From Spirochaetota bacterium (GTDB lineage: Bacteria > Spirochaetota > UBA4802 > UBA5550), in contig CAXXHB010000003.1 in the NCBI GenBank assembly GCA_963664815.2, forward strand, positions 1,600,001-1,664,000: DNA of 64,000 nucleotides, written 5' to 3'. Made by a program: the position numbers and the translations under genes. The number at the start of each line of letters is the position of its first letter. Position 1 is the stretch's first letter. Below, piece by piece: positions 9,290-33,786 of this stretch. The notes below the pieces were generated by a model. The model did not search any database. It was not told where the DNA came from and was given only the letters and a program-made list of their open reading frames with translations.

Positions 9290-10243
9290 GTGCAGAAAAA
9301 TGGCAGTAAAAGTCCGAAGAACAAAAATCAGAATAAAATATGGGATAATATTTCGATAAAAGATCATCCTCTTGATGGTATGGGAAATCCTTCTTATAAA
9401 AAATATGATCCCATATTAAGTGTTTATAAATATTCAGCAGACTATAGGGATCCGGTTCTGGGGAAAATTGATAAATCAGAAAACCTGTTCAGCAAAAAAT
9501 ATAAGTGGAGAATGAAAGGGCTTAGTATAGATTCAAGATTTTTTGCTGTCTGGTCAAATGAGAAAATTTATAAAAACTATTTCAATTCACTTTATAAAAC
9601 AGCAAAAAGTATGCATAACAGGTATAGAGATAGTGATAGTGTTATGGCGGTTGAGCCGGAGGATTATGTTGCTATGACTATAGGTTATTTTATTAAAAGT
9701 ACAGAGAAGTGTCAGCTGGAATATAATAATCTTATAGATAAGATCGGCTATTATAGTCATTACCCCCTTGATGATACATATAAAAGTTCTGAAGAGATAG
9801 GCCTTGGTGTAATGAAAATGTATAATCAAAAGCTGAAGTCTAACTTCACGGATGCTCTGCGAAGACGAGGACCTGTGCCGCAGGGTAATATACTGAACAT
9901 TGTTAACTCCGACCAGTCGTTTACTGATTCCGTAATTTCAATCGAGCAGGAAGTCTCTTCGCTTCCTTACTTGAAAAAAAAAGGTTATGCCGGGGCTGTG
10001 TTTTATTATCTTGCACTTGGTTCCCTTTCCAAAAAGGAGATAGAAATCAGTGTTAAAGAAAAATTTCAGATAGCAGGAAATGATTTTAAATACTGCATTC
10101 AGCGGGCTGTCCATGAAATTAAAAGTGATATAATATACAGGATTTTATCTATTCAGAAGGAAATCTGTAATCATGGTGATATAGAAGTGCTGCTTATCAG
10201 AATTGGAGAGTATCTGAGTTTACAGTATGAAGGAGTTGCCTAA
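9290..10243 (+). CDS. Divergent ECF/sigma-70-like factor (putative)
   Basis: EPEDYVAMTIGYF (~region 2.2 DAEDLVQE), KSNFTDALRRR (~region 2.4 N..IDYLRR), AVFYYLALGSLSKKEI...KYCIQRAVHEIK (~region 4 HTH); GGAGG RBS, GTG start; motif resemblance only. Confidence 0.5.
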   Translation: MQKNGSKSPKNKNQNKIWDNISIKDHPLDGMGNPSYKKYDPILSVYKYSADYRDPVLGKIDKSENLFSKKYKWRMKGLSIDSRFFAVWSNEKIYKNYFNSLYKTAKSMHNRYRDSDSVMAVEPEDYVAMTIGYFIKSTEKCQLEYNNLIDKIGYYSHYPLDDTYKSSEEIGLGVMKMYNQKLKSNFTDALRRRGPVPQGNILNIVNSDQSFTDSVISIEQEVSSLPYLKKKGYAGAVFYYLALGSLSKKEIEISVKEKFQIAGNDFKYCIQRAVHEIKSDIIYRILSIQKEICNHGDIEVLLIRIGEYLSLQYEGVA

Positions 10244-11811
10244 TGGAAAGATATAATGAAGCTGTTGCATCACTTAAAGATACATTTCGAAATACCTTTT
10301 TTTCTGAATATGACCCTTTTAATGCGGGCGGCAGAGATCGTGAAATTATGGAAAGCTTCTACTCTGTTTTGAATAATTTTTTATCAGACATGAGTGTAAC
10401 GGGGAAAAAAGATCTTCTGGACCTGCTTGATAATTCGGAAGAGTTTTCATCTAATAATTCATTTGAGATGGATTTTGATCCGTACTTTATTCTTCAGCTT
10501 GCTGCTGACGGAAATCCCCTCTTTGATTCATTGCCTGATGAAACACTGCGCATGGTTGAGCAGCTGCTGAGATCTGAATCTGAATTTCTTGAAGATCTTT
10601 TTGTCTGTGTCGGTCTGAATAATGTGAATCTGCAGAATGAATATATGCTCCAGATGGCGTTGCCTTCATGGAGTGAAATAATGACGCGGATCTTTTTTGA
10701 AGAGAGGAATATTCTTGATGACCTTAGAGCTCCCGATTCAGTTGCGTCAATGGACCCTTCGGTGATTGTTTCTTTTTATCTTGATAGGGATTTTGATAAA
10801 GAAAAGTATAGTTCCTTTGATTTTTTTAAAGATAACGTTCTCAGGAGAGATTTTGAGAAGGCCGCATATATTATTCCGGGTATTTTTAATTTTATTGCCC
10901 AGAGAATTGCAGATCCGGAAAGCTTTTCTTCTTTCCCGGTTGATTTTAATATAATCAAAGAAGTTCAGCATTATATACTGCTCAAGAGTATTGTGGAGCT
11001 GCTTGTATCAGGATCACTTGCCACTGATGACGGCAAAGCCCTTCTTTCAAGGCTATACCTTATTTTTGCAGCATCTGCCGGAGTTAATGATGATAGCCCC
11101 AACTGGAGCTTTAATGCAGGACTGCTGGAAAAATTGTGTAATAATCCGGTAAGAATTGATTCTCTTAATTCGGTACCGTTTACAAGGATTAACAGGGTTG
11201 TTCTTAATTTTCTGACCTCCGTGGCGTATCTCTGTTCTGATGATGAGGGATTTATTAAATCATGTTCAAAACTTCCTGACAGATATGATGGGGTAGTCGA
11301 GTTGATGAATTCTCTGCATATGCAGGATATTACCAAAGAACGGGAGGCTGATTCTGTTCCGTATACTGCAAGGCTTTTTAATAATTTTACAGATGCAGTT
11401 TCGAGGTTTATGGAATCCGGGCTTCAGAGAGAGATGAAGGTTGTTGTTTTAAGGGAGCCTGCAGTAGCGGTGTTTGGTACTGTCCAGGTGCCGGAGAAAA
11501 AATACACAATAAGCGGAACAATAGGGGAATCCTCTTTCACCGCTAAAATTTCAACAGAACTGATAATGGATGAAAAAGCTATTATGCTTGAACTGGATTT
11601 TGATATTGATACTCCCGATCCGGACGGATATGAAGTTGCTTTATATATTAATTTTAAAGGTGTTAAGAAAAGAATTAACTCAAGGTTATTTAAGGGATCA
11701 GCCTTTCATCGGGTTTATAAGCTTGATCCTATGATTCGTATTTCCTATTCCCTTGAACTTTCCCTGACAGATGGAGAAGAATCCCTTATCCTTTTTTCAG
11801 CGGAGTACTGA
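10243..11811 (+). CDS. Acidic hypothetical protein, candidate anti-sigma / protease substrate
   Basis: TAATG overlap with the sigma-like gene; helical N-terminus and beta-rich ~110-aa C-terminus; function inferred from position only. Confidence 0.75.
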   Translation: MERYNEAVASLKDTFRNTFFSEYDPFNAGGRDREIMESFYSVLNNFLSDMSVTGKKDLLDLLDNSEEFSSNNSFEMDFDPYFILQLAADGNPLFDSLPDETLRMVEQLLRSESEFLEDLFVCVGLNNVNLQNEYMLQMALPSWSEIMTRIFFEERNILDDLRAPDSVASMDPSVIVSFYLDRDFDKEKYSSFDFFKDNVLRRDFEKAAYIIPGIFNFIAQRIADPESFSSFPVDFNIIKEVQHYILLKSIVELLVSGSLATDDGKALLSRLYLIFAASAGVNDDSPNWSFNAGLLEKLCNNPVRIDSLNSVPFTRINRVVLNFLTSVAYLCSDDEGFIKSCSKLPDRYDGVVELMNSLHMQDITKEREADSVPYTARLFNNFTDAVSRFMESGLQREMKVVVLREPAVAVFGTVQVPEKKYTISGTIGESSFTAKISTELIMDEKAIMLELDFDIDTPDPDGYEVALYINFKGVKKRINSRLFKGSAFHRVYKLDPMIRISYSLELSLTDGEESLILFSAEY

Positions 11812-11813
11812 AA

Positions 11814-14800
11814 ATGTTGGTGCTGCGGTTTAAAAAGAAGTCTGACAGAATCGATATTATCGAGTTTTATATTCATAATCAGGGAGATGAACTGAATTCT
11901 ACAGACAGTATAGATATATCAATGGGGGGCACCGGGTGGGCCGGTTATCTTGCTTCAATCTGGAAATGCAAACAGATTATTGAGGGGGCAGTTCTTTCCG
12001 GAAAATTTACTAAAGAGATTCTGAATAAAATGCTGCCGCAGTTTGAAGTGCGGAAGCTGTTTCCGCATCTTGCAGAGAGGAGCGATGGACCGCTCAGTGT
12101 CAGGGATATCTGGCTTAAAAGTGTAGTCTCATCAAACCAGCCCCAGAGAATGGTTCTTCAGGTTGATTCGGATACAGGAATGGTACCATGGGAGTATGGA
12201 GATCTTTCTGAAAATGAGTATTTTTTCAGCAGGCATATACTGACACGACTCCCTTCCGGCATATCTTATACAAAATTGAAGAAACTCGCCAGTTCTGATA
12301 ATATAAATTTTAATCGCGGAATAAGAATATTCCCTGTACTTGCAGATGTAGGGGAGGTAAAATATTTTTCTGAAACGAAAAAATTTATAGATAAGATGAC
12401 TTCTGATCTTGGACAGGAGTATTTTGATGATGACTATAATAATTCATACACCCTGTTTTTGAAAAGTTTCTGCAGTTATCCGGTTGTACATCTTATCTGT
12501 CATGGACCCGGACTTGAAAACAGCTCTAATGCGATTCAGGTAGACCATAGATTTATACCGGTCAGAGATTTTATTAATAACCTGATTGAGCAGTATGTTA
12601 TAAGGAATGAATTTCCCGCTCTTCTCATCCTTTCAGTTTGCGGAGGCGGTTCAGCTATAACTCCTGATCTGATAGCTGAACTCTTTGAAAGGACTTCTGT
12701 CAGTAATATCATTGTATCTTTTTTTTCAATTCCGGTTAATAATACTACTTTTGATTTCTATACAGAATTATACAGAAATATAATTCATAAAGGGATGGCT
12801 GTTTCAGAGGCCTTTCACAAGGCTGTCAATGACCCGTTTAATCCTATAGGAGCAATACACCAGCTCTGGGGAAACCCTGATGTAAAATTTACCCGCATGA
12901 CTGCTGTAGACCAAAATACTGCCGTGAAGGTTCATGATACTGCAACAGCATCGATCTCCGATGCTATAATGGCAAACAAGGTAATGGACCTTATGAAGTC
13001 AAACTCCTTTGACGAGGCATCTGCGGTTATTGACGGCATAAACGATGATGAGACGCAGCAGAAGCTTAGATCAATGAGCAGCAACCTTGAAGCGGATGTT
13101 GCAGAACTTCTGGATAAAGCCCGTTTATCGAGCAGGGATGTTTACACAAATATATTTAAGGAAGGGAGTATCATTGACGGTATTGCTGAATTGGGACTGT
13201 GGCCCGATGGAGAGATATATCACATTGCGTGCGGATTTTATGATTATATAAATAAGGAGAAAAGTATAAGGATCAGGATCCCGGAGGACCAGAGCAGCCA
13301 AAATATTGAACGCCTCAGCTCCCTTGTCAATTCAGACAGCTATAATTCGGCAGCAGGTCTTGAGAAATACTATTACTGTTCAGACTACAGGCTTTTCGGG
13401 GAGAATTTTTCAATATTTTATATCTGCGGCGAAATGCCCGTGGGTGAAAATATTAATTCAGATTCTTTGAAGGAGATTCTGCAGGGGATGTCCCCGGAAG
13501 AGAAAATAGGGATTGCTGTAAAAACCGCTTCTGATCTGTGCAGCGCAATGAATCTTTTTCATAAAAATGATCTGTATTTCCAGACGATTGAACCTTCAAA
13601 AGTATATATAAATCTGAACGGACCTTCTGCCGAGTCCATATATATTGCAGACGCTATGTTTTGTGCTGTCACGGAGGATAAAATAAGCGGCCTTCCTGAA
13701 AACGATGAATGTATATCTGATAGATTAATTGTTTCTAACATGATGGATGTTGCAGGGATAGTGTTTCATGATATTCTTGGTTATGAAGGAGACCTGGGGT
13801 CTCCGTTAAAACCGGGAGTAGCTCTGGTGATTGATGATCATCGCAATCTTATCCGCTGTTATTTTATGAATGAAGAAGGTTATGACAGGGTAATCTCTGA
13901 TAGAAGATTTCATGCATTACTTAAGCTTACTGACTGTAGAAAAGCGAGCAGATACCGGAGTGCGGGTGAAGCGGCTATAATCCTTAAAGGGGGGAATACG
14001 GTTTTTATTAATGAAATGAAAGAAACCGTTATGGCAGGTTCCCGGTTATTATATCTTATGGACAGATATGAAGATCCTGTTACTGTTGATGATATATGCA
14101 ATAATTTCGGGAGGACTGTGCTTCTTGATGAACTGCTGAAAAAAGGGTCGGATATGGCCTCTCCGAAGGTAGTAATAGTTAATGCGATGAACAGGCATGA
14201 TTTTTATCGTTGCCTTGAACCCTCTAAAACTTCCGGTGATCCATTTTTTATAGTTCTTCTTAAAAGTGGAATTAATATTATGATTCTTGATATTAACGAT
14301 GTGTTTGATGTCGATGAGAAAGCAGTGAGATACTATCATTTTTTTATGACATATATGAAAAGATATCTTGAACAGCCGTCGAGACCGTCTGTAGTAATGC
14401 TTTATTCTAACGCGGTTTACAGTTTTTTTAAAGATAAAAATCTGCTCAAGCATATGAAGATTTTATTTAATTCACCATATGATATTCATGATTATTATAG
14501 AGAAATTCACAATTCATCCCTGGCTTCCGAAATTCAGCTTGATGAAAATGAGATAAATGAAATTGCAGCGAATTGCATAGGACTGACATTACGCGAAGTC
14601 AAATACGCCATGGGTTATATTCTATCCTGCGATCTGATGAATTCAGTTTCGGGTGACGGTTTTAAGAGCTACCTGAATGAATACCGCATGAAAACAATGC
14701 TTTCAGGATCGAGGATTCTCAGGTTATATACTCCAAAGGATGATGTTTACGGGGGGTATCATGGTCTGGATGATTTCATAACTTCAGTCAGGATAAGTCT

Positions 14801-15539
14801 TGATTATAACTTCAGCATCAATTTCAAGTCATCTATTTTTACCGGGTTTTCCGGGACAGGGAAAAAATCCGCTGTGTCGTATCTGGTAAAAAGGCTGGAA
14901 ATCCCGGCTGTTTCGCTGGATATTTCGGAGATATTTGCAAACGGTTTAGACTCCAATCCAGTAGGCCTGCTAAGGTATGCTCTGGCACTTGTAAAACAGA
15001 TGCAGCCGTGTATATTGATAATTAACAGGTTTATAAAAGATATCATAGTTGCTTCAGAGAATTCATCAGCTCTGAAACTTATAATGGGGACTCTTCTCAC
15101 ATGGCTTCAGGATATCGGAAATACAAATATTCTGGTGTTTGCCCATGATTCTGTTAACAGTATAGCCGATGCAGAATCTCTTAATCATGAATTTACAAGA
15201 TCCGGACGATTTACGGAAAAATTTTTTTTTAATTACCCGTCTATTGACTCCGAAAAAGAGATTCTCGGATTATATGCCGGGTCTCTCGGTGTTAAGATAA
15301 GCGATGAAGAAGCAGTTGCCGTATTATCGGAAGAACAGATGTCCGGTTGTCTGACTCCTGCTGATATCCGTTATACAATGAATGAAACAGCGCTCAGGTA
15401 TATAAAGAATGAGAATGGTACAGTACCGGATCTTTTCAGGGGTGTTGTGAAGAGGGGGTTATATCTCAGGTCTGATAGAAATTATAATGCTGCACTGGCT
15501 GGAAGAATGAAAGATTCCGGATATACTATATTGAATTAA
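11814..15539 (+). CDS. CHAT (caspase/HetF-like) peptidase - pseudokinase - degenerate AAA+ fusion protein
   Basis: CHAT: VPWEY, VHLICHG (His230), LILSVC (Cys276), LWGNP. Kinase-like: LFHKNDLYFQTIEPSKVYI, YIADAM, SRYRSAGEA. AAA+: GFSGTGKK, ILIINRF (no DE), TRSGRF. Confidence 0.8.
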   Translation: MLVLRFKKKSDRIDIIEFYIHNQGDELNSTDSIDISMGGTGWAGYLASIWKCKQIIEGAVLSGKFTKEILNKMLPQFEVRKLFPHLAERSDGPLSVRDIWLKSVVSSNQPQRMVLQVDSDTGMVPWEYGDLSENEYFFSRHILTRLPSGISYTKLKKLASSDNINFNRGIRIFPVLADVGEVKYFSETKKFIDKMTSDLGQEYFDDDYNNSYTLFLKSFCSYPVVHLICHGPGLENSSNAIQVDHRFIPVRDFINNLIEQYVIRNEFPALLILSVCGGGSAITPDLIAELFERTSVSNIIVSFFSIPVNNTTFDFYTELYRNIIHKGMAVSEAFHKAVNDPFNPIGAIHQLWGNPDVKFTRMTAVDQNTAVKVHDTATASISDAIMANKVMDLMKSNSFDEASAVIDGINDDETQQKLRSMSSNLEADVAELLDKARLSSRDVYTNIFKEGSIIDGIAELGLWPDGEIYHIACGFYDYINKEKSIRIRIPEDQSSQNIERLSSLVNSDSYNSAAGLEKYYYCSDYRLFGENFSIFYICGEMPVGENINSDSLKEILQGMSPEEKIGIAVKTASDLCSAMNLFHKNDLYFQTIEPSKVYINLNGPSAESIYIADAMFCAVTEDKISGLPENDECISDRLIVSNMMDVAGIVFHDILGYEGDLGSPLKPGVALVIDDHRNLIRCYFMNEEGYDRVISDRRFHALLKLTDCRKASRYRSAGEAAIILKGGNTVFINEMKETVMAGSRLLYLMDRYEDPVTVDDICNNFGRTVLLDELLKKGSDMASPKVVIVNAMNRHDFYRCLEPSKTSGDPFFIVLLKSGINIMILDINDVFDVDEKAVRYYHFFMTYMKRYLEQPSRPSVVMLYSNAVYSFFKDKNLLKHMKILFNSPYDIHDYYREIHNSSLASEIQLDENEINEIAANCIGLTLREVKYAMGYILSCDLMNSVSGDGFKSYLNEYRMKTMLSGSRILRLYTPKDDVYGGYHGLDDFITSVRISLDYNFSINFKSSIFTGFSGTGKKSAVSYLVKRLEIPAVSLDISEIFANGLDSNPVGLLRYALALVKQMQPCILIINRFIKDIIVASENSSALKLIMGTLLTWLQDIGNTNILVFAHDSVNSIADAESLNHEFTRSGRFTEKFFFNYPSIDSEKEILGLYAGSLGVKISDEEAVAVLSEEQMSGCLTPADIRYTMNETALRYIKNENGTVPDLFRGVVKRGLYLRSDRNYNAALAGRMKDSGYTILN

Positions 15540-15552
15540 CAAGGAGAATGAT

Positions 15553-17388
15553 ATGTCTGCGCAGGAACAGGTACTCAAGGAGATAAAAAGTCACATTATA
15601 GCAGGGTTCCGTTTTATATATGTTTCGACATCTGAGGAGACTGAGTTTATAGACAGGATGAAAGATTCGGTTGAATCTGATTCTGCATTCGGTTCTCTTG
15701 TGCTTTTTGTTGATTACGACGAGATAACAACAATGTCCAGAATTTACGGAACAAATACAAAAAAAATTATAGATGACTATGGCTGGCCTATAAAGAATTT
15801 CAAGTATGAATGCAGCGATATCCAGAAAAAGGACTCGGCAACAATGGACAGGTATAATGGTATCAGCCACCCGCTTGAGATGGCGTTTAATCTTGAGAAC
15901 CTTAACCCTGTACTTGACAAAATCAATCAGTCTGAATTTCAGAGTGCCAAAGACAAGATCCGATTTATATTTTTTATCAAGGACGCTCACCTGCAGTTTT
16001 TTATCCGAACAAGAAATTTTAAAAGAATTGAAGATTTTTTTGAAAAGAGGGGATATAACCGTGCTGATTTTTTCTTTGTTCTTATCTCATCATTTCCGGG
16101 AAGTATTATTCCTGAAGATTTTTCCCGTTACGTTGTGAGTTTTGATTATCCGCTGCCGGGAATGGATACTATGAGAAAAATCATTGCAGAAAAGATTTTT
16201 GCAGGGAGCGAAAAGATTAATGAAGAGACAGATGTGCTGGTTGACAATTTTGCAAGAGCCGGAGTGGGTCTCTCCGAGAGGGAGTTCAGGCTCTCTTTAA
16301 ACCTTGCTATGCAGGAGGGGGAGGGCAAGCTCACCCTGAACACACTGGGTACCATACATAATCAGAAGTCACAGATACTGAAAACATCAAATCAGTTTCT
16401 TGAATATATTACAGACAGCACCATTTATGGAGGAGATGAAACTTTTAAGGATATAGGCGGAATGGACCAGCTCAAAGACTGGATAAAATTAAGGAAACTA
16501 CTTATTAACCCATCGGAGAAACTTGCATTTAACGAGGAACAACTTGCAATTCTCAACAGACTTGATAAACCCAAGGGCCTGCTGCTCTTTGGTATTTCCG
16601 GGGGAGGGAAATCCCTCATGGTACGTCACATAGCCCGACTATTCAAAGTACCTCTCCTACGTCTTGATATAGGGCGTATTTATGGCCAGTATGTAGGGCA
16701 GTCTGAAAGAAATATCAGGGAAACCATACGGCTTGCAGAGGCTATGTCTCCATGTGTATTATGGATTGATGAAATTGAGAAAGGGTTTGCCGGATCTCAG
16801 GGAAGCGGCGACAGCGGAACCTCCTCCAGGGTCTTCGGTTCATTTTTAACATGGATGCAGGAAAAAAAGGCTATGGTTTTTGTTGTGGCCACGGCAAATA
16901 ATATAACTTCAATACCACCTGAAATGACAAGGATGGGGCGTTTTGATGCACTCTTCTTCGTCCCGCTTCCTGATCTGGAGGGGCGTAAGGAGATATTTAA
17001 AATACATCTCCGTAAATATATTCCTTTAACAGTGATGCCGGATGAAAATGTTGACAGACTTGCTGCAGATGTTTTTGAAACCGGATCCAATAGCGAAAAT
17101 TTAAGATGCATCACCGGTGCGGAGATTGAACAGTGTGTTAAAAACGCGATCCTTGTTAATCTTCATTCATCTGTTTCATCAGGTGATTCTAATCTTGAAT
17201 CTGCAATCAGGGAACAATTCATGATTGTCACACCTATGTACAAAAACCCGGTATTAAACGAACAATACAGAGGTCTGTGCAGATGGGCGGAATCGCGGGC
17301 AATAATTGCGGGAGCTTATGATGATAACGATGATGACGCTCTAAATAGTTTCGGGAGGGATCCCGGAGCCGGCAGATTGAATCATTAA
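15553..17388 (+). CDS. AAA+ ATPase, Ycf46-like
   Basis: DIGGMDQLKDW, Walker A GISGGGKS, YVGQSE, Walker B LWIDEIEK, ATAN, RMGRFD; AAGGAG RBS. Confidence 0.92.
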   Translation: MSAQEQVLKEIKSHIIAGFRFIYVSTSEETEFIDRMKDSVESDSAFGSLVLFVDYDEITTMSRIYGTNTKKIIDDYGWPIKNFKYECSDIQKKDSATMDRYNGISHPLEMAFNLENLNPVLDKINQSEFQSAKDKIRFIFFIKDAHLQFFIRTRNFKRIEDFFEKRGYNRADFFFVLISSFPGSIIPEDFSRYVVSFDYPLPGMDTMRKIIAEKIFAGSEKINEETDVLVDNFARAGVGLSEREFRLSLNLAMQEGEGKLTLNTLGTIHNQKSQILKTSNQFLEYITDSTIYGGDETFKDIGGMDQLKDWIKLRKLLINPSEKLAFNEEQLAILNRLDKPKGLLLFGISGGGKSLMVRHIARLFKVPLLRLDIGRIYGQYVGQSERNIRETIRLAEAMSPCVLWIDEIEKGFAGSQGSGDSGTSSRVFGSFLTWMQEKKAMVFVVATANNITSIPPEMTRMGRFDALFFVPLPDLEGRKEIFKIHLRKYIPLTVMPDENVDRLAADVFETGSNSENLRCITGAEIEQCVKNAILVNLHSSVSSGDSNLESAIREQFMIVTPMYKNPVLNEQYRGLCRWAESRAIIAGAYDDNDDDALNSFGRDPGAGRLNH

Positions 17389-17402: not shown

Positions 17403-18242
17403 ATGGATAGCTGGAAATATAATTTATACCGGACAGCATTTTCCTCTATTTTTATGAGGGCTGATTATAATTTAGAATATGACAGCTACAGGTATTTTCT
17501 TGATACATTCGGGAGTCTGAACCATGAGATGTATCTGTTATTGTGGGATAACCTTCTCCGTTACGTATATTTAAAAGATGAAAAATATGATATGTTTCTT
17601 TATGGAGAACTTTCACCCGTTTCCTATTCATTAAAATGGCATATGGATTATCTTCAAAACCCTGAGAAAAAAACCAGATCCAGATGCCGGTTCAGAAAAA
17701 GGCGGAATCCCCCTTATATGGAAATTATGAATTCGATATCTGAAACTCCAAATGTAGTCGATTATTTTTTTATAAATTCTATCTTCAGGAAATCAGACTC
17801 TCAATTTATTAAAGATGTGCTATTAAGTAATGACAAGCCTGCAAAATCCCTGGTCCAGTTTATCCGGAATAATCGTCTTCTTATTGCAGGAACACCTGCT
17901 GATAATTATCTTAAAGAATATGAAGCATCTCTCAATGCCGGCAGAAAAGATTCAGATAAAAGGAAAGAAAAAAATAACAATAAATGTGAGGATGTGAATC
18001 ATCCGAAAGTTTATCTATACAATCCGCCCGATGTGAATAATATAAAACAGCTTGTTCAATCCGGTATGGCAACAGTATCTATTCAGGAGGCTTTTTCTGT
18101 TTTTATCTCTTCCCAAATCTTGAGCCTCGATAACTTTTTTAAAAATGATATTATTAAAATGTTTAATCCGGTTTATTTTCCCGAAACTGAAAAAAAATTT
18201 CTGAAACACTATGCTGTTTCAGCAGAAGTTTCGTCTAAGTAG
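17403..18242 (+). CDS. Hypothetical protein (operon member)
   Basis: 279-aa ORF 14 bp after the AAA+ gene, with AAGGA RBS. Confidence 0.75.
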   Translation: MDSWKYNLYRTAFSSIFMRADYNLEYDSYRYFLDTFGSLNHEMYLLLWDNLLRYVYLKDEKYDMFLYGELSPVSYSLKWHMDYLQNPEKKTRSRCRFRKRRNPPYMEIMNSISETPNVVDYFFINSIFRKSDSQFIKDVLLSNDKPAKSLVQFIRNNRLLIAGTPADNYLKEYEASLNAGRKDSDKRKEKNNNKCEDVNHPKVYLYNPPDVNNIKQLVQSGMATVSIQEAFSVFISSQILSLDNFFKNDIIKMFNPVYFPETEKKFLKHYAVSAEVSSK

Positions 18243-18316
18243 ATTTAATATAGGGTAAATATCCGGCTGTTCAGGATCAGGCCGGTTTGCAATGATAAAT
18301 GATTTAAGGGGGAATT

Positions 18317-18835
18317 ATGAGCGGCAGGATTACAATTTGCCTTCAGAAGAGCGTTACAAAAAGAAAATTTCGCGGAACCGTTGAATTTCCCGGAAATCTC
18401 TACTCGTCAATACTTGGTGACCTGATAAAAGAGGGTCTTCTTACAGAATGGAAAGATGGGGATTATGAGGGGAAACCCTGTAAAATTAAAGAAGTAACCC
18501 TTATGTATATGGAGAATGAACTCACAGCGCAGCTGATACTTCAGCGGGATCAGGATGGCTACAACATGAACATCAGATTTGATCAGCAGAAGATCGAAAT
18601 ATACGAAGAGTGGGAGAACCAGGCTGGAAGCAGTATTGAAGAAGCATTGCAGAAGGTCACAGCTGTTGAATCCGCCCTTATCGATTACGAGGTGCTTAAA
18701 TATTACCACAAGGACAGAATTGATGTGACCCTTAATGTAAATGAATTCTCCGATGATCTTGTTAAGATTAAAGTGAATGATAATTATGAAAACCGTTCCC
18801 AGAAGATAGAATATTATGCCGTGGAGAGGTATTAA
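18317..18835 (+). CDS. Hypothetical protein, resembles small FtsH-ternary-system component
   Basis: AAGGGGG RBS; abuts the next gene (TAA-ATG); N-terminus MSGRITICLQKSV resembles such families from recall. Confidence 0.75.
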   Translation: MSGRITICLQKSVTKRKFRGTVEFPGNLYSSILGDLIKEGLLTEWKDGDYEGKPCKIKEVTLMYMENELTAQLILQRDQDGYNMNIRFDQQKIEIYEEWENQAGSSIEEALQKVTAVESALIDYEVLKYYHKDRIDVTLNVNEFSDDLVKIKVNDNYENRSQKIEYYAVERY

Positions 18836-20533
18836 ATGCAGGATCTTCTTGAGGTAATAAAAAATGAATACAAAGCCGGATACAGGGCAGGTGTTGATGA
18901 ATTTTCTGATTTATTCTGGGACAGCGATGAGGAGAACAATCTCCATAATACTCATTTCCGGGTATTCAGAAAACAGATAGATTCAATTACTGAATCCCTT
19001 TTTAATAAAAAGAGTGTAGTGGTTTACTGTGACAGAAACCTTTCAAGACATATAGGCAGATGTCTGCGTGACAGGATAAAAGAGAAAAGCCGCATTTATG
19101 GCGGGGATAGCAGGCTCAACCCGATTGAATGCGGATTTCTAGAATATAACAGCAGCGCGAAAACAACATCTACAAGGGTAAGAGAATTTCTCATATCGGA
19201 GAAAATAGGTGCCGGCGAAACATGGATTGTATATAATTTTGACCTGATTTCAGTAAAAAATATCGGCGATTCATCTATTGATATAGATTTGTGTTTTAAT
19301 TTTCTTGAAAAAAAAAATCAGGGAGCCAAGCTTGTAGTATTTGTTGACCCGGATATTTGTACCCTTCCGAAATATTTTGAAAAACATTTTGATACGGTTT
19401 ATATTAATGGAATTTCATCCCCGGCATCTCTTCTCCCTGTGTTTACTTTTAAAGAGTTCCAGAAGATTGCATCAATAGAAAAAGGCAAATCATGGGATGA
19501 CGTTGAAATAGAAGACATTAATATTAACCCGGAGGTTCTATACCAGCTTTATAACTACCTTTCAGCATTTTCACCTGAAGAGATAAGGGTGATCCTTAAA
19601 ATGGAAAGGAAACCCGATGAAAGCTTTGTCGATTCGGTTAAAAGAAACAGAAACAGGTATCTCCATGATGTTATGGATCTTTATTCCGTAAGCAAGGATT
19701 TTAAAATCGAGGTTCCGTGGCTGAAAAAGGAAAAAGATCAGATTATAAATCTTATAAACTATTCACAGGTAAAGGTTCATGCAAATCCTCATAAAAAGAT
19801 AAGGGGTATAATCCTTTATGGCCCGCCGGGCAACTCAAAAACCACACTCATCAAGAGTATATGCCAGGATATAAATACAAACTATATTATAGTCAGTGCA
19901 TCTGATATAAAGAGCAGATATTTAGGCGATTCAGAGAAAGCTGTTAAGGATCTTTTCAGGAAAGCCGCCCAGGCTGCACCATGTATTCTTGTATTTGATG
20001 AGATGGAAGCGCTTTTCTTAAGCAGGGATATTCAGATGAGCAATCCATCAGGGGGTATGCTAGGGATTGTGAGCACGCTCCTTCAGGAGATGGACTCTAT
20101 TCAGAGCAGCGTTAATGTTTTTGTTATAGGAACTACCAATAAACTTGAAATGCTCGATAAAGCATTTCTCAGACCGGGAAGATTTGACCGGATAATGAAG
20201 ATAGACCATCCCCGGAGAAGTGATATCCCGGTGATTGTCGATTCGCTGCTGAGGATATACCTCGACGGAGGGGACCCGGAGGATACCGGCAGAATTTCTG
20301 AAAACCTTGTTAAAGTAATCCAGGCAAGGTGTACCGAAGCTGAATTGAAAAAAAAAGCAGCGTTTTCTATTGCTGATATTTCCCATATTATAAGAATGCT
20401 TGATATTGAACGTTTTAACGGTAATAAAGAAGAGATCATCAAACTTGTTTCTGCAATAGTTTATGACATTGATGAGGTCAGGGCTGATACGGTGTCATCA
20501 AAAACCGGCAGACCGGATGACAGCGTTTTTTAA
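18836..20533 (+). CDS. AAA+ ATPase, CDC48/FtsH-clade, no protease domain
   Basis: GIILYGPPGNSKT (variant Walker A), YLGDSE, LVFDEME, GTTNK, LRPGRFD; long N-terminal domain; no HEXXH or TM. Confidence 0.9.
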   Translation: MQDLLEVIKNEYKAGYRAGVDEFSDLFWDSDEENNLHNTHFRVFRKQIDSITESLFNKKSVVVYCDRNLSRHIGRCLRDRIKEKSRIYGGDSRLNPIECGFLEYNSSAKTTSTRVREFLISEKIGAGETWIVYNFDLISVKNIGDSSIDIDLCFNFLEKKNQGAKLVVFVDPDICTLPKYFEKHFDTVYINGISSPASLLPVFTFKEFQKIASIEKGKSWDDVEIEDININPEVLYQLYNYLSAFSPEEIRVILKMERKPDESFVDSVKRNRNRYLHDVMDLYSVSKDFKIEVPWLKKEKDQIINLINYSQVKVHANPHKKIRGIILYGPPGNSKTTLIKSICQDINTNYIIVSASDIKSRYLGDSEKAVKDLFRKAAQAAPCILVFDEMEALFLSRDIQMSNPSGGMLGIVSTLLQEMDSIQSSVNVFVIGTTNKLEMLDKAFLRPGRFDRIMKIDHPRRSDIPVIVDSLLRIYLDGGDPEDTGRISENLVKVIQARCTEAELKKKAAFSIADISHIIRMLDIERFNGNKEEIIKLVSAIVYDIDEVRADTVSSKTGRPDDSVF

Positions 20534-20548
20534 AAAGGAGGATTTTGT

Positions 20549-20854
20549 ATGATAAATCAGGATGCAAAGATAGTTTTCAGTATAAAGGGTTTTAATGAAA
20601 CCGGAAAGCTGGATGACCGGGAATTTTCAATCGAAGTGGATATTGATTGTGAATTAAAACATAAAGAGGGTATGCCAGATGCTGAACATGGGAATATGCA
20701 TGATCTGATTGTAAGTTATGTAAAAGACTTCATTATGGAGCCCGGGCCCGGGCCGTACCAGCGTCGTTCGCTTGATGTACATGACAGAGATAGTAAAGAG
20801 GCGGAGAAAATAAGCCAGCCGGATGTTTTACGGGTAGAAGTAACAGAGCAATAA
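20549..20854 (+). CDS. Small hypothetical protein between AAA+ and MoxR
   Basis: AGGAGG RBS; acidic; MPDAEHGNMHD His motif. Confidence 0.8.
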   Translation: MINQDAKIVFSIKGFNETGKLDDREFSIEVDIDCELKHKEGMPDAEHGNMHDLIVSYVKDFIMEPGPGPYQRRSLDVHDRDSKEAEKISQPDVLRVEVTEQ

Positions 20855-20870
20855 AAGACAGAGGTAATAT

Positions 20871-22112
20871 ATGAATCAGAGACTATCACAGAAGAAATTT
20901 AAAGAGGACCTACATAATAATATTACCGGAGGGGTTCTGGACCGGATAAAAAATATCAGAATGGAGATGAGGCAGCATTTCTGGGGGAGCAGATACGAAG
21001 AAATTATTGATAATATTATAATTGCAGCAATGGCCGGTCAGCCGATCCTCCTGATCGGGAAACCGGGAGTTGCTAAATCTCTTATAATGACAACCTTTTT
21101 TTCTCTCTTAGGACTTAATAAAACATATCAGGACGAAAAAGGGGAATCCCTGCCAGGGGCCAAGTATTTTCAATATCTTCTTCATAGCTTTACAATGCCG
21201 GATGAAATTCTTGGAGTAATCAAGATAGGAAAGTTTTTAGAGGAGAGCAAATTTGTAAGGGAGAGAGAGGGTTCCCTGAATGATCAATATGTGAAAGCCG
21301 CGTTTCTTGATGAAGTTTTTAATGCCAATTCTACCATACTGAATATGCTTCTTAGCATAATTAATGAGAAGGAGTTTTATGAAGGGGGGGTAGCTCACAG
21401 GAGCAACCTGTTTATAATTGCCGGTGCCGCTAACCGGGTTCCAAGAGAGCCAGAATTACATGCTTTTTTTGACCGGTTTCCCGTAAGGCTTATTGTTGAC
21501 CTTAACCTGAGTGAAAAAGTGAGCCTTGAAGAGTATAATAGAAGGTTGTCATTATCGTCAGACACTCTGCAGGATGAGGATCAGATAGACTTTGATCAGT
21601 CAGAGGAGATTTCGTTTGATGATCCGGTCTTTTTCAGAATAATAGATCAGGGTATAGAGAATCTGAAAAGACGATCATACTCTATCAAAGGTATAAAGTA
21701 TGACAGGTATCTCACCGGAGAGAATAGTATGCCGACTGTGGAGGATTTTGAAACGGTGCATAACTATATCGTTTCACATTATTCTGCATCGGACGGGAAA
21801 ACTTTCACGGATGACGCAAAAAAAGCCATGGCAAGGCTTGTAGAGGATCTCAGCGAAACAGATACCTGTAATATTAATGGCCGAAATATTGTAAAACTCT
21901 ATATGCTTTCAGCCGCTTCTGCAATTTTCAGGGCGGCTGTTGAAGGTCCGGGTGATGATGGATTCTCTCAGCCGCAAATAACTGTTCAGGATCTTTCCGT
22001 ATTCAGGAATATATGGAATTCAGATAATAATGAAATAATATCAATGCATTTCGGGGCGGTGGATAGTATATTGAACGAATATGACAGTGATTATAAAGGT
22101 TACAATGGATAA
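20871..22112 (+). CDS. MoxR/RavA-family AAA+ ATPase
   Basis: LLIGKPGVAKS, YFQYLLHSFTMPDEILG, FLDEVFNANSTILNMLL, GAAN..P, FFDRF. Confidence 0.92.
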   Translation: MNQRLSQKKFKEDLHNNITGGVLDRIKNIRMEMRQHFWGSRYEEIIDNIIIAAMAGQPILLIGKPGVAKSLIMTTFFSLLGLNKTYQDEKGESLPGAKYFQYLLHSFTMPDEILGVIKIGKFLEESKFVREREGSLNDQYVKAAFLDEVFNANSTILNMLLSIINEKEFYEGGVAHRSNLFIIAGAANRVPREPELHAFFDRFPVRLIVDLNLSEKVSLEEYNRRLSLSSDTLQDEDQIDFDQSEEISFDDPVFFRIIDQGIENLKRRSYSIKGIKYDRYLTGENSMPTVEDFETVHNYIVSHYSASDGKTFTDDAKKAMARLVEDLSETDTCNINGRNIVKLYMLSAASAIFRAAVEGPGDDGFSQPQITVQDLSVFRNIWNSDNNEIISMHFGAVDSILNEYDSDYKGYNG

Positions 22113-23520
22113 AGAATTCATATCTGAATTATACGATTATGCCGAATTTTCTCCTATTCTGAGGGAAATAGACAGGATATATTATACTTATTCAGATTAT
22201 ATTACTGATTCGAGTTCTCTCGGGGATGATATTCTTAAAATTCATTCTATAGAACTGGAGGATGCTTTTATTGTAGTTTATTTATTTTTAGTTTTAATAC
22301 TTTTACAATTTGATCCTGCAGGAAATCTAAAATACAGATTTAAAAGAATTGCTTCCGAGTTTTCCGGAACAATATGCTTTAACTTTGCTAAAAGGCTTGA
22401 TGAGTTTACCGGTTTTTCAGCTCCATCTGTAAAGGATTTCCGAAATTTTCCGGAAATCCTACCGGCTGTAATGGGGATTCTTTTCAATCTCCGGAGTCAA
22501 ACTGATTTATCTCTTTTTGTTGAATCAATACTCAGGGAGAGGTTTTATTTTTTTTCATCTATTTATCTTGATGACAGCAAAAGGCCGATGGTTAGAGGGA
22601 TAGCTGCAAAGTTGTACTCGGCTTATATCAACGATAAAATGAGAGTGTATGAATTATTTGACGGCCCGGAAGGCAGTTACGTGAAGAAACCGGTCAGCAG
22701 GTTTAAACAGATTAATGTAAATGAATTTGATGTTTACAGTTATTACGGAAGTATGCCTATACCTTCTGAATTCTGCAGGATGAAGGCCGGTAAATATTTT
22801 AAACCGGATAAAATTCTGAAAAAACATAACAATCCTATAGCGGGTTACAAAGATGATCCATTCAGAGATATCGGGATTGTTGCAAAGTACGATTATTTAG
22901 CAGGACGGATGATAAAGCTCGGTGAGTCGTTTGATAAAATAATTGAGAGGAGTTTCAATCTCAGATTTGTCATAATACATCCTGTTGCCGGACTTTTTCA
23001 AAGAGAACTGCTTGATATTATACCTCTTGTTTTTACTCATTTTTTTTCTGAATACGTTCCTGATGTAACTTCCATAAATCTTAAAATAATCAGGGGAAAC
23101 AGCATTGATGGTTTTTCAAAATATGAAATGGAGTTTGATACCATCCCTCTCATAGACTGTTGTTTTCTTTCTGATCATTACATGAATTCCTATTTTCTTC
23201 ATAATATGAATGAGGAACCGATGGACAGGATTACTTTAAAAAAATTTTTTGAAGAAAAAAGTTATATAGTAATAAACTCTCCGGATAGCCCCGGGCTGGA
23301 GCAGAATATGATGAAAAGTCTGTTAAATCCTTTATTCTGTATGGGGAATATTGAACTGCATAATGATGATTCATTGCTGTTTAAATCTGACAATATGTAC
23401 CGGGAGGAATTGCTTAAATTTTTTGACAGTCATTCACAGTCATTCACAGCCGGTTTTTATGATATCCTTCGTCATGTGTCTTCCAGAATTATTCGTGCGG
23501 GGGAAATGGAATATGTATAA
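22105..23520 (+). CDS. Hypothetical protein, candidate degenerate vWA/ViaA-like MoxR partner
   Basis: ATG 22105 overlaps the MoxR stop (ATGGATAA); position typical of MoxR vWA partners; no DxSxS MIDAS visible. Confidence 0.7.
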   Translation: MDKEFISELYDYAEFSPILREIDRIYYTYSDYITDSSSLGDDILKIHSIELEDAFIVVYLFLVLILLQFDPAGNLKYRFKRIASEFSGTICFNFAKRLDEFTGFSAPSVKDFRNFPEILPAVMGILFNLRSQTDLSLFVESILRERFYFFSSIYLDDSKRPMVRGIAAKLYSAYINDKMRVYELFDGPEGSYVKKPVSRFKQINVNEFDVYSYYGSMPIPSEFCRMKAGKYFKPDKILKKHNNPIAGYKDDPFRDIGIVAKYDYLAGRMIKLGESFDKIIERSFNLRFVIIHPVAGLFQRELLDIIPLVFTHFFSEYVPDVTSINLKIIRGNSIDGFSKYEMEFDTIPLIDCCFLSDHYMNSYFLHNMNEEPMDRITLKKFFEEKSYIVINSPDSPGLEQNMMKSLLNPLFCMGNIELHNDDSLLFKSDNMYREELLKFFDSHSQSFTAGFYDILRHVSSRIIRAGEMEYV

Positions 23521-25378
23521 ATATTACAAAACATCTAATTTGATGTTTACATTGAGGCAGCTTGAAAGGATTCCGGTCCAGGATATATCGTATAACGAAG
23601 AGTATTCGGTGTTCAGGGTCAAGTATACAAAAAGTTTCCGGCCGTCTTTTTATCTATTGTCTTATGAAGATGGTATATACTCTTCCATGAAAATAAAATT
23701 TTCTCCTGTCGGGGAATACCACGAAATAATACACCAGGAGATAGATTTCAGTGGAAGGAAGAAATACGGATGGGACGGAGGCTCCGTGCTTATTCTTTTC
23801 AGGAAGAATAAGCACGGAAAAAATGACGATGGGATCATCAGGATTCTTGAAAAAGTTGTGGCGAAACAGGATATTATTATAAAATCGTCATTTCTTAATA
23901 ATGAGATGTGGGACTTTGGTCTGCTTATTGATAATTTGAAGGATTACCTGTTTATTAAACTGATTCATGAATCGGGTGTCGCGGACGTTTTTGAAAGATG
24001 TGATAACTATGTTTTCTTTAAGGACATGCAGGGATATTATCCGAAATGTTTCACCCCCTGGGACAGGATTATTATTCCAAGAACTGATTCTGAACTTGCA
24101 GTGCCTGACATGCTTCTGATGATGGATGGTGATTCAAAGGTAACAGGCTGCATGATTCCATCAAAAAATTTTGAAACAGTTTTTACGAATCTAAAGGTAT
24201 ATCTTGACAGGGTCTCATTTGAAAAAACAGATATTGCGGAGTCAGAAAAAATTTCGCTTACCATAAGGCAGCCGGCTTTTAAACCTGTAACTGAATTTAA
24301 ATCAGAGATAATAAAACAGATTTCATACGTAAACAGTTTAAGGGAACAGCTTAGACGGCAGGAGATAAAACTCCGGAATATGGAGTCTAATCTATCTGTT
24401 GTACAGGATCAGGTTACCACACCTGCAGGATTGCTTAAGGTTACTATACCACAAAAACCTTCCAGATTATGGCAATCGGTTTTTAATAAAATTCTGATGT
24501 CGCTTCCAGGGCGTAATTTTTCATCTCAGGTTTTCAGAAAGAAAGAATCGTATGAAATTATTGTTATGGATAATGGCTGTATAGACCCTGATATGAAAAA
24601 TCCGGATGGTGTACTGGATGGGATGACTCTTCCTGATTATAGAGAAAGCCTCTATTCGCTGGATATGAGACTTTTTAATGAAACAGGACTTTCGTTGTTT
24701 TTTCCGAAGTATGATGGATCAGGCAGACCGTTTGTTATAGGGAGATTCAATAATGATCTTGCTCCTATGCTTTTCAGATCGTTGATACAGAAGTTAAGCC
24801 GGGAACTGGACTCCGGAGAAGAACAGCAGGAGGGTATGGCGGATACTATTGAGGTGCATAATCAGACTGGTTTTATGATTATTGGTGATGAAAACAGTGA
24901 TGATGAAAGCAGAGATTATTTAACGGAAGAATATTATTATATTATAGATAGCGGTATGGATGCGGATGATCCGCTGATTCATATATCACGCTACAGCAGG
25001 CATGATCTTCTTCCATTTGATAGCTTGTGTGACAGGTTTATGATTAATGCAAATATAAAACGGATTGAATTGGATAACTCAGATCATAATGACAGGATAG
25101 AGATATTCGGTGAAGGTGATTTTATTAAGTCATTTCAGGACAGGCTATATGGCAGGGATAATGAAGCTCTATTTAATAACCTTAATGAGAGGAAAAAGAC
25201 TTTTACTGATGATAAACAGGTTTTTGAAAAATCTATCAATGACTTTATTAAAGACAGGGACAGGTTTAACAGTATTACCTCTTCAGCCGGGAAAGCATTG
25301 AAAAAGATGCAGAAAATAATAGATAACGTATCAGGGATGGAGTCGGGAAGAAAAGTGGAAGGAGATGGAAAGGAATAA
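23513..25378 (+). CDS. Hypothetical protein with coiled-coil segments (operon member)
   Basis: Start reassigned to ATG 23513, overlapping the upstream stop (ATGTATAA); heptad-like LREQLRRQEIKLRNMESNL and C-terminus. Confidence 0.78.
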   Translation: MYKYYKTSNLMFTLRQLERIPVQDISYNEEYSVFRVKYTKSFRPSFYLLSYEDGIYSSMKIKFSPVGEYHEIIHQEIDFSGRKKYGWDGGSVLILFRKNKHGKNDDGIIRILEKVVAKQDIIIKSSFLNNEMWDFGLLIDNLKDYLFIKLIHESGVADVFERCDNYVFFKDMQGYYPKCFTPWDRIIIPRTDSELAVPDMLLMMDGDSKVTGCMIPSKNFETVFTNLKVYLDRVSFEKTDIAESEKISLTIRQPAFKPVTEFKSEIIKQISYVNSLREQLRRQEIKLRNMESNLSVVQDQVTTPAGLLKVTIPQKPSRLWQSVFNKILMSLPGRNFSSQVFRKKESYEIIVMDNGCIDPDMKNPDGVLDGMTLPDYRESLYSLDMRLFNETGLSLFFPKYDGSGRPFVIGRFNNDLAPMLFRSLIQKLSRELDSGEEQQEGMADTIEVHNQTGFMIIGDENSDDESRDYLTEEYYYIIDSGMDADDPLIHISRYSRHDLLPFDSLCDRFMINANIKRIELDNSDHNDRIEIFGEGDFIKSFQDRLYGRDNEALFNNLNERKKTFTDDKQVFEKSINDFIKDRDRFNSITSSAGKALKKMQKIIDNVSGMESGRKVEGDGKE

Positions 25379-25380
25379 TT

Positions 25381-25635
25381 ATGCCTCATAGTAATGAACC
25401 GGTTTATTATGACAGAAGCCGTATCGCCTCTATGTTGGATGAAGCGGCTGAGATAACTAATGTTCTGGTCTCTGACGCTGATATTATGTTGGATCAGTTT
25501 AATAGAATAACTAATAGAAAAAAGCCGTGGTATGAGGGTAATATACAGGGAGAGGGGGAATCCGGTTTGTTTGAAAATATACTGAGTTTTATTAAAAAGA
25601 TGCTGTTTCCGGTTAAATCCGGAGGTGGAAAATAA
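25381..25635 (+). CDS. Small hypothetical protein
   Basis: AAGGA RBS; 2 bp after the previous stop; its end carries the GGAGG RBS of the next gene. Confidence 0.7.
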   Translation: MPHSNEPVYYDRSRIASMLDEAAEITNVLVSDADIMLDQFNRITNRKKPWYEGNIQGEGESGLFENILSFIKKMLFPVKSGGGK

Positions 25636-25640
25636 TAATT

Positions 25641-33753: not shown

Positions 33754-33786
33754 CATATTTGAATTTTAAGATAGGAGGGATATTTA

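Follow-up and report, generated by a model that had tools for sequence, protein, structure and literature searches.

Can a sigma factor be set free by a caspase-like protease within the cytoplasm, and with no CRISPR system alongside? This question is raised by three adjacent genes (open reading frames ORF1, ORF2 and ORF3) in the genome of a Spirochaetota bacterium, within a 64-kb stretch of DNA that was analysed as a whole (hereafter the window; it sits in a 4.27-Mb contig of a 5.2-Mb genome). A preliminary description of the window had read the three genes as a sigma-like protein, a candidate anti-sigma factor and a CHAT protease that cuts the second to release the first, without any CRISPR component. 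The layout it gave was borne out by the sequence: the three ORFs, the coupling of ORF1 to ORF2 through a TAATG overlap, the acidic 522-residue ORF2 and the 2 nt between the TGA of ORF2 and the start of ORF3 are all as described. ORF1 begins with a GTG codon, with GGAGG placed 7 nt upstream. What the description had overlooked is an AAA+ module at the end of ORF3, which is followed after 13 nt by a gene for an intact AAA+ ATPase (ORF4), and the same-strand cluster of about 26 kb, nearly all coding and running to about 35.6 kb in the window, that the triad heads. The reading that we prefer, which we regard as possible though not quite probable, is a protease-gated sigma/anti-sigma switch extended by AAA+ docking of ORF3 on ORF4.

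The protease itself was assigned by profile comparison. In Pfam, the match of ORF3 residues 221-338 to the CHAT family (PF12770, E=0.025) reaches 14.5 bits where the cut-off is 24, and a genome-wide search gives 16.7 bits. CHAT domains are present in 38 of 122 genomes of the same order, and 24 of 30 loci from such genomes supplied a reference alignment (the other six, shorter than 3,900 bases, were dropped because their flanks were incomplete). Aligned to these 24 domains with hhalign, residues 100-400 of ORF3 gave a probability of 90% (P=1.7e-6, 248 aligned columns). The alignment places VVHLICHG on IIHFAAHG and LLILSVCGGG on LVVLSACETG; the opening motif is also matched, as is the closing motif at ORF3 residues 297-337. 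His230 is the His of VVHLICHG and Cys276 the Cys of LLILSVCGGG, so that the dyad named in the preliminary description falls on the catalytic motifs. Controls were clean: the real segment scored 49.8, the best of 30 shuffled segments 22.4, the reversed segment 13.9 and eight other natural segments from cluster proteins 20.9 or less. Judged from these profiles, ORF3 is a genuine though divergent CHAT (caspase-fold) protease. Neither a signal peptide nor a transmembrane (TM) segment was seen in it (best 19-residue Kyte-Doolittle mean 1.60), and a cytoplasmic protease appears to be the best explanation of its sequence.

ORF3 stands almost alone. A search of PDB sequences with the whole protein or with its CHAT segment returned nothing relevant, a k-mer homologue search recovered the query alone, and 60 related genomes held no match beyond a weak AAA-domain match in one of them. 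Across 400 genomes of the phylum the N-terminal 420 residues gave four matches (E~0.005), which is about the number expected by chance. Of 14 weak PDB matches to the middle region, 9 are to the PknB kinase domain (residues 545-602, positions 13446-13619), at a non-significant E~0.9-1.2; a kinase is not supported here, since none of the kinase families in Pfam matches at E<=1. The genome also encodes a canonical CHAT protein elsewhere (contig positions 3360171-3361124, a 987-aa frame, PF12770 E=2.1e-57), of a type common in its order.

The tail of ORF3 gives the locus its second distinguishing part. Its C-terminal 340 residues match the AAA family PF00004 (E=2.1e-6; residues 1008-1140 score 28.7 bits, above the cut-off of 21.2) and the phage family phrog_8638 (E=1.1e-14), and they are paralogous to ORF4 (29% identity, E=5.9e-15). 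Within the cluster, the AAA domains alone are related to one another. ORF4 is a clear member of the family (PF00004, E=2.4e-28; Walker A GGGKS, Walker B IDE). In the ORF3 module the Walker A motif reads GFSGTGKK, with KK in place of K[ST], and the Walker B motif reads ILIINR, compared with VLWIDE in ORF4 and ILVFDE in the second AAA+ ATPase of the cluster (ORF 18836). The arginine-finger motif R-x-G-R-F is kept in all three proteins (RSGRF in ORF3). This pattern of motifs suggests that the ORF3 module is probably a non-hydrolysing subunit, and it could sit in a mixed ring with ORF4. The degenerate module, together with the neighbouring AAA+ and MoxR genes, makes it likely that the mechanism differs from the one first proposed.

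Is the target of such a protease a sigma/anti-sigma pair? The genome has 14 ordinary Sigma70_r2 matches and thus uses sigma factors, and ORF1 belongs to a small family of its own. A HMMER search of 1.84 billion representative sequences found nine relatives (E from 9e-54 to 1e-5), and those carrying names are each a "hypothetical protein" of Spirochaetia or of Spirochaetota metagenome-assembled genomes (MAGs). The closest are P0008, with 40% identity and on a contig of 21,098 bp, and P0010, on one of 36,749 bp. Strong matches occur in 3 of 401 sampled genomes of the phylum, its own genome counted. A k-mer search recovered ORF1 alone, a single-query search of the 60 related genomes found none, and two scans of viral contigs found no relatives. 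In scans of metagenomes one alignment (A3) found nothing and a narrower one (A2) found one locus (L007), a duplicate of a locus already in hand (L006).

An AlphaFold2 (AF2) model of ORF1, built from 10 sequences, has a predicted local distance difference test score (pLDDT) of 66.6 overall and of 84-94 over residues 211-290. We compared the model with 48,161 representative PDB chains using VIA-align, a fold search independent of Foldseek. Of its best 50 matches, 19 belong, judged by entry title, to sigma factors, sigma-like domains or bacterial initiation complexes (with chain F of the complexes taken to be sigma), and 17 of these 19 stand among the first 23. Residues 84-195 align with sigma2 chains at Z 4.3-5.3 and a root-mean-square deviation of 2.5-4.2 A over 67-77 residues (4nqw_A, SigK: Z 5.3, 2.7 A over 75 residues; 5wuq_A, SigW: Z 5.1, 2.8 A over 77; 2o7g_B, SigC: Z 4.7, 2.5 A over 67). 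Residues 206-291 align with sigma4 domains (3mzy_A, sigma-H: Z 5.2; 2h27_D, sigmaE region 4: Z 4.7, 69/69 residues; 6ono_B, SigA region 4: Z 4.3), a comparison in which winged-helix domains of non-sigma proteins score alike. The two predicted domains stand in the correct order, sigma2 and then sigma4, at Z 4.2-5.9. In the ESM Atlas the nearest named clusters are Sigma70_r2 (100% of members, 0.94) and Sigma70_r4_2 (69% and 34%; 0.93), matches of a level that the tool rates as "often chance" and as leads only; these clusters are viral. Of the resemblance to extracytoplasmic function (ECF) sigma factors that the preliminary description had seen in spaced segments of ORF1, what stands is thus a predicted fold of low Z, with sigma2-like and sigma4-like parts in the right order; as a match of sequence it did not stand, in Pfam or in hhalign.

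ORF2 has no sequence match in Pfam, PADLOC, NCBIfam or PDB and no usable match in the ESM Atlas, and a k-mer search recovered it alone. Its N-terminus is more informative. We read three loci of the ORF1 family, namely that of the genome itself and two in MAGs (L005 and L006), and in all three the gene after the ORF1 homologue overlaps it (by 4 and 17 nt in the two MAGs). The partner proteins of the MAGs have 583 or 637 residues, of which the first ~150 are homologous to the N-terminus of ORF2 (BLASTP E=1e-8 for the L005 partner and 9e-5 for the L006 partner). After this domain come two hydrophobic helices and a large C-terminal part, which is common to both MAG partners (E=7e-53) and, in L005, carries an OmpA domain at its end. 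In ECF systems the gene directly after the regulator typically encodes an anti-sigma factor in which membrane helices join a conserved cytoplasmic domain at the N-terminus to an outer domain that varies (PMC10028731, PMC11506125). By this usual layout the MAG partners resemble anti-sigma factors. ORF2 itself has no TM segment (best 19-residue Kyte-Doolittle mean 1.23): in place of the membrane and outer parts it has a soluble rear of ~360 residues, and the gene for a cytoplasmic protease comes next. Such a swap would fit a shift of the input signal from envelope to cytoplasm.

A prediction of the complex of ORF1 with ORF2 residues 1-165, of the kind that the preliminary description had suggested, returned "weak support", with a median score of 0.47 (runs 0.47, 0.01 and 0.57) against 0.27 for the best of three controls. 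The runs agreed in at least 34% of contacts, with a partner pLDDT of at least 47. Of 80 solved complexes 58 attained the mark, as did 2 of 110 mismatched pairs; with scores of 0.60 or under, only 7 of the 80 did, together with both of the passing mismatches. Binding of ORF2 to ORF1 is weakly suggested by these models, and a sigma/anti-sigma pair may be called the best available reading of the two proteins, on evidence that is weak.

Several results weigh against it. ORF1 matches no Pfam family even at E<=10, none of 10 family members matches a sigma family in Pfam, and a profile of the family finds nothing relevant in PDB, as is the case for ORF1 itself in NCBIfam, PADLOC and PDB sequences. 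Compared by hhalign with seven ECF sigma factors of the same genome, the family gave a non-significant result (P=0.032, probability 1.6%) and a short alignment that falls on regions 2.1-2.2. All of the VIA-align Z scores (maximum 5.9) lie under the level that the tool calls common for helical proteins; given this warning, we weighed the enrichment and the domain order, rather than the scores, as moderate evidence. Foldseek found nothing for the ORF1 model at E<=0.001 in PDB or BFVD, and sigma entries appear there only at E of about 0.4-1.7. The best-conserved parts of the family are the N-terminal residues ~25-90, which are rich in proline, glycine and aromatic residues and poorly modelled, and a HYPL loop, not the sigma4-like helix-turn-helix; such a pattern is unusual for sigma factors. 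On the side of ORF2, no recognisable anti-sigma domain was found in Pfam, NCBIfam or PDB sequences with either the protein or an alignment of its N-terminus (A4), and AF2 gave no usable model of it (pLDDT 39.9). Both MAGs have a flagellin gene (Flagellin_N/C, E~1e-39) immediately upstream of the pair (L005, 3408-7151; L006, 65-3883), and the other flanking ORFs that were scanned matched neither a CHAT nor an AAA family, so the linkage of pair and protease is a single observation from one genome. In L005 these ORFs encode a transporter, a glycoside hydrolase and beta-helix proteins; in L006 they encode a TPR protein, MreB and two proteins of no family. For ORF2 and ORF3 no relatives could be detected.

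The promoter search adds one more point on that side: no recurring promoter motif was found in four intergenic stretches of the cluster. Among the candidates considered, 8-mers and 9-mers common to the upstream regions of ORF1, the 172-aa ORF and the 591-aa ORF were not sustained on checking. The octamer ATCCGGCT was found 10 times against 1.33 expected from shuffles, a count that none of 100 shuffles reached; it was rejected as a promoter motif, being enriched window-wide on both strands and mostly intragenic, and its excess may be an oligonucleotide bias of the genome. TTTCGTCTA was rejected for want of any enrichment, and a scan for the sigma-70 consensus gave 69 sites against 62.5 expected, which is chance level.

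We also observed that positions ~96-220 of the ORF1-family profile (including HYPL and GILxLY) weakly match the N-terminal extension of a ~900-aa frame that ends in GreA_GreB_N. The match was found in two small genomes of the phylum (G172 and G339, loci L011 and L012; E=7.3e-5 and 4.4e-4 per genome), which are close kin, so that it counts once. It may hint at a common RNA-polymerase-associated module.

In a rival account ORF1 is not a sigma factor at all, and the pair is instead a module of another function, so far known from spirochaetes only, related for example to the envelope or the flagellum, that precedes an unrelated protease/ATPase cluster. The lack of sequence evidence for sigma domains in ORF1, structural Z scores in the noise range of the tool, family motifs outside the sigma-like helices and the weak match to the GreA-like frame are all on the side of this account, as are the position of the pair downstream of flagellin in both MAGs and the OmpA domain in the L005 partner. 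It has to contend with the strong enrichment of sigma chains among the structural neighbours of ORF1, in two domains and in order, with the agreement of the protein-language-model neighbours and with the anti-sigma type of layout in the partners, and we consider it rather doubtful. If it holds, the flagellin-adjacent pair is still an undescribed module, found only in spirochaetes so far.

Table 1. Positions, in window coordinates, of the triad, its domains and the genes around it.
Feature	Position	Strand	Description
ORF1 (P0001)	9290..10243	+	317 aa, isoelectric point (pI) 9.06; sigma-like protein
ORF1 sigma2-like helical domain (predicted)	9539..9874	+	residues 84-195
ORF1 sigma4-like helix-turn-helix domain (predicted)	9905..10162	+	residues 206-291
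ORF2 (P0002)	10243..11811	+	522 aa, pI 4.49, D+E 16.3%; candidate soluble anti-sigma-like partner
ORF2 N-terminal ~160 aa	10243..10722	+	sole part common to the MAG partner genes
ORF3 (P0003)	11814..15539	+	1241 aa; CHAT domain, ~550-aa middle region and degenerate AAA+ module
CHAT (caspase-fold) domain of ORF3	12114..12878	+	residues ~101-355; by profile comparison
His230 codon of ORF3	12501-12503	+	in the CHAT domain
Cys276 codon of ORF3	12639-12641	+	in the CHAT domain
Classical AAA+ module of ORF3	14529..15386	+	residues 906-1191
ORF4 (P0004)	15553..17388	+	611 aa; intact classical AAA+ ATPase of a phage-borne family
Remainder of cluster	17403..35602	+	by strand and spacing
279-aa and 172-aa orphans	after ORF4, before 18836	+	
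Second AAA+ ATPase (ORF 18836)	18836-20533	+	
101-aa orphan	between 20533 and 20871	+	
bpMoxR ATPase	20871-22112	+	PF20030, E=1.1e-35
479-aa orphan	22081-23520	+	
675-aa orphan	23351-25378	+	
Orphans of 591, 1791, 322 and 401 aa	25641-34992	+	strongly hydrophobic segments; junctions overlap by 4 nt
Small radical SAM protein	34964-35602	+	
Split DDE transposase	7856-8968	-	two abutting ORFs, 128 and 241 aa; DDE_5 / DDE_Tnp_1

What, then, do the genes behind the triad say about its role? From strand and spacing, the remainder of the cluster and the triad would form one system. In it, the bpMoxR ATPase is followed by two orphans in which no vWA domain or beta-propeller was found (no relevant Pfam family at E<=1, though divergent forms are possible), and the three genes could represent a MoxR ternary system that has diverged strongly, or else a MoxR protein with new partners. 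The four hydrophobic orphans further on have no family above threshold in Pfam, NCBIfam, PADLOC or PHROGs, and are candidate membrane effectors of the cluster. The 591-aa ORF has sub-threshold matches to Translin in Pfam (E=7.6e-4) and to an endonuclease family in PHROGs (E=0.0012). The AAA+ proteins of the cluster match PADLOC models of the IetA ATPase (E down to 2e-25).

This gene content invites an account in which the pair does regulate the cluster and the CHAT-AAA protein is not the protease of the pair. It would instead be part of an NTPase-peptidase conflict (defence) system, made up of CHAT-AAA, the two AAA+ ATPases, bpMoxR and the membrane orphans, in which the CHAT peptidase has a signalling or effector role towards other targets. 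The bpMoxR and two classical AAA+ genes downstream on the same strand and the IetA matches speak for it, and the MoxR systems of Kaur et al. 2020 include caspase-like peptidases and, in one subtype, an AAA+ FtsH (PMC7159879); the pairs in the two MAGs, moreover, have no CHAT gene in their scanned flanks. Against this, the vWA domain and beta-propeller were not found in the two ORFs after bpMoxR, the IetA matches may reflect the shared AAA core only, and the 2-nt spacing of ORF2 and ORF3 argues that all three genes are translated together; the word "sigma" has no occurrence in PMC7159879. We hold this account to be fairly unlikely.

The cluster could also be a remnant or the cargo of a phage or other mobile element, in which ORF1 would be a phage-type transcription factor and the AAA+ proteins would serve the element. 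Among the facts in favour is ORF4, which matches phrog_8638 over almost its full length (E=8.9e-86 over residues 121-589) and has relatives, by tblastn, in 130 phage records, where they are annotated as AAA-ATPase or hypothetical only. The best phage match is in Agrobacterium phage JP1 (35% identity, 69% query coverage); no CHAT, protease or sigma-like gene was found near the AAA gene of JP1, which speaks against a phage origin of the locus. Rhizobium, Pseudomonas PaMx31-like and Mycobacterium Corndog-like phages also carry relatives of ORF4. The viral ESM clusters nearest to ORF1, the absence of ORF1 and ORF3 from the 60 related genomes and the split transposase just upstream, which is probably frameshifted, fit such an origin as well. 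On the other hand, no structural, lysis, integrase or replication family of PHROGs was found in the 14 cluster proteins scanned, the viral-contig scans held no ORF1 relatives, and the G+C content of the cluster (37.6%) is typical, standing at the 41st percentile of the chromosome. We regard a mobile-element origin as very unlikely. Outside the cluster, the genes of the window are ordinary chromosomal ones. Neither flank had a DNA match in three genomes of the same genus, a comparison that is uninformative on the borders of the island. Between the transposase and ORF1 there is a hairpin at 9068-9108, with a 17-bp stem and a T-run.

The claim that no CRISPR component takes part holds for the window, where we found 0 tandem-repeat arrays and, in the ORFs scanned with Pfam or PADLOC, no Cas family; this is a result for the window and not for type III systems genome-wide, and a Pfam search of the genome for Csc2 is a poor proxy for type III-E and little informative.

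The switch that we prefer would work as follows. At rest, the N-terminal ~150 residues of ORF2 would keep ORF1 from RNA polymerase. A cytoplasmic signal would activate the protease, which would then cut ORF2; the sensor may be the ~550-residue stretch in the middle of ORF3, or else the AAA+ proteins may sense the signal with their N-terminal domains. ORF3 would dock through its dead AAA+ module onto the active ORF4, and the AAA+ partner would unfold or remove the leftover fragment of ORF2, as ClpXP does for RseA. ORF1, once free, would activate target genes, of which the ~26-kb cluster behind it is the simplest candidate. That the CHAT protease cleaves ORF2 is suggested by likeness to Craspase, DdvA/DdvS and CalpL, and we infer the sigma function, the binding of ORF1 by ORF2, the CHAT-AAA assembly and the regulon. 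In its fullest form the proposal is of a CRISPR-independent, wholly cytoplasmic switch, in which a CHAT protease held in a hetero-oligomeric AAA+ ring cleaves a soluble anti-sigma factor, itself the founder of a new family, and pulls it away. This would free a member of an unrecognised and extremely divergent branch of sigma factors, which would activate a 26-kb island of uncharacterised membrane and ATPase proteins that is presumably for immunity or conflict. In this complete form we think it unlikely.

Protease-gated sigma/anti-sigma switches have recently emerged as a route from immune detection to a transcriptional response (Craspase, CalpL, DdvA/DdvS), and each of those is bound to CRISPR or to an envelope sensor. 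If our reading is true, the same switch logic runs in the cytoplasm and free of CRISPR, and a caspase-like protease can work with an AAA+ machine of its own by way of a dead ATPase subunit. Spirochaetes would then hold a sigma-like family that is invisible to sequence searches, and the regulator and its promoter targets would offer a handle on about 20 kb of functionally unrecognised genes.

How does the locus compare with the systems already described? In Craspase, the TPR-CHAT protein Csx29 is the protease that cuts Csx30, a protein that binds the ECF-like CASP-sigma with its N-terminal domain, and the cleavage lifts the inhibition of CASP-sigma and turns on genes of the same locus (PMC10028731). 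The spirochaete locus is similar in having a cytoplasmic CHAT protease beside a family-less protein. Unlike Craspase, it has no Cas7-11, crRNA (CRISPR RNA) or CRISPR array that we could find in the window, no TPR (tetratricopeptide repeat) was detected ahead of the CHAT domain of ORF3, that domain is fused to a degenerate AAA+ module, and ORF2 has no sequence match in PDB. CASP-sigma is, moreover, a clear ECF sigma factor (HHpred 100%, PMC10028731), whereas ORF1 is undetectable as a sigma factor by sequence.

The second comparison is with Myxococcus xanthus, where DdvA is an anti-sigma factor fused to TPR-CHAT and controls, with the ECF sigma factor DdvS, a defence island of several systems (PMC11506125). 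Its CHAT domain has the His-Cys dyad, and self-cleavage has been proposed as the trigger, not yet shown; DdvA is a single TM protein, with the anti-sigma domain in the cytoplasm and TPR-CHAT in the periplasm (PMC11506125). Here too, a candidate sigma-like and anti-sigma-like pair stands beside a CHAT domain with a His-Cys dyad and heads an island. The differences from DdvA are that ORF2 and ORF3 are separate genes, that neither protein has a TM-like window and that no recognisable anti-sigma domain was found. The islands differ in content as well: that of DdvS/DdvA carries CBASS and CRISPR, and this one AAA+/MoxR genes and orphans. CalpL, CalpT and CalpS, the SAVED-Lon protease, anti-sigma factor and ECF-like sigma factor of type III CRISPR systems (10.1101/2024.05.08.593097), form a tripartite protease/anti-sigma/sigma effector of immunity, which the triad would resemble in plan. 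CalpL, however, is a Lon-type protease activated by cyclic oligoadenylate through SAVED, and this locus gave no sign of SAVED, Lon or Cas10.

Two further systems bear on the AAA+ parts. The MoxR-centred ternary conflict systems of Kaur, Burroughs, Iyer and Aravind 2020 (PMC7159879) share with the cluster a bpMoxR, a classical AAA+ ATPase, a peptidase of the caspase superfamily and membrane-associated variable proteins, all on one strand; their defining vWA domain and beta-propeller were not detected here, and the description of those systems mentions no sigma factors. In the RseA route, DegS and RseP act before ClpXP, and an AAA+ protein clears the fragment that still holds the sigma factor (PMC10028731). 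The AAA+ parts of the spirochaete locus would differ from those of that route in being dedicated and encoded in the same operon, with one of them dead and fused to the protease.

With no CRISPR component, TPR, TM fusion or recognisable ECF or anti-sigma domain, the locus is not a member of the Craspase, DdvA-DdvS or CalpL systems; it may work like these switches without belonging to them. A CHAT-AAA fusion beside a sigma pair was not found in the literature, which is no proof of its absence in print, as supplementary tables lay outside the scope of the search. What sets this locus apart from the known switches is its cytoplasmic protease, the fusion of that protease to a dead AAA+ module with an active neighbour, and the extreme divergence of all three proteins.

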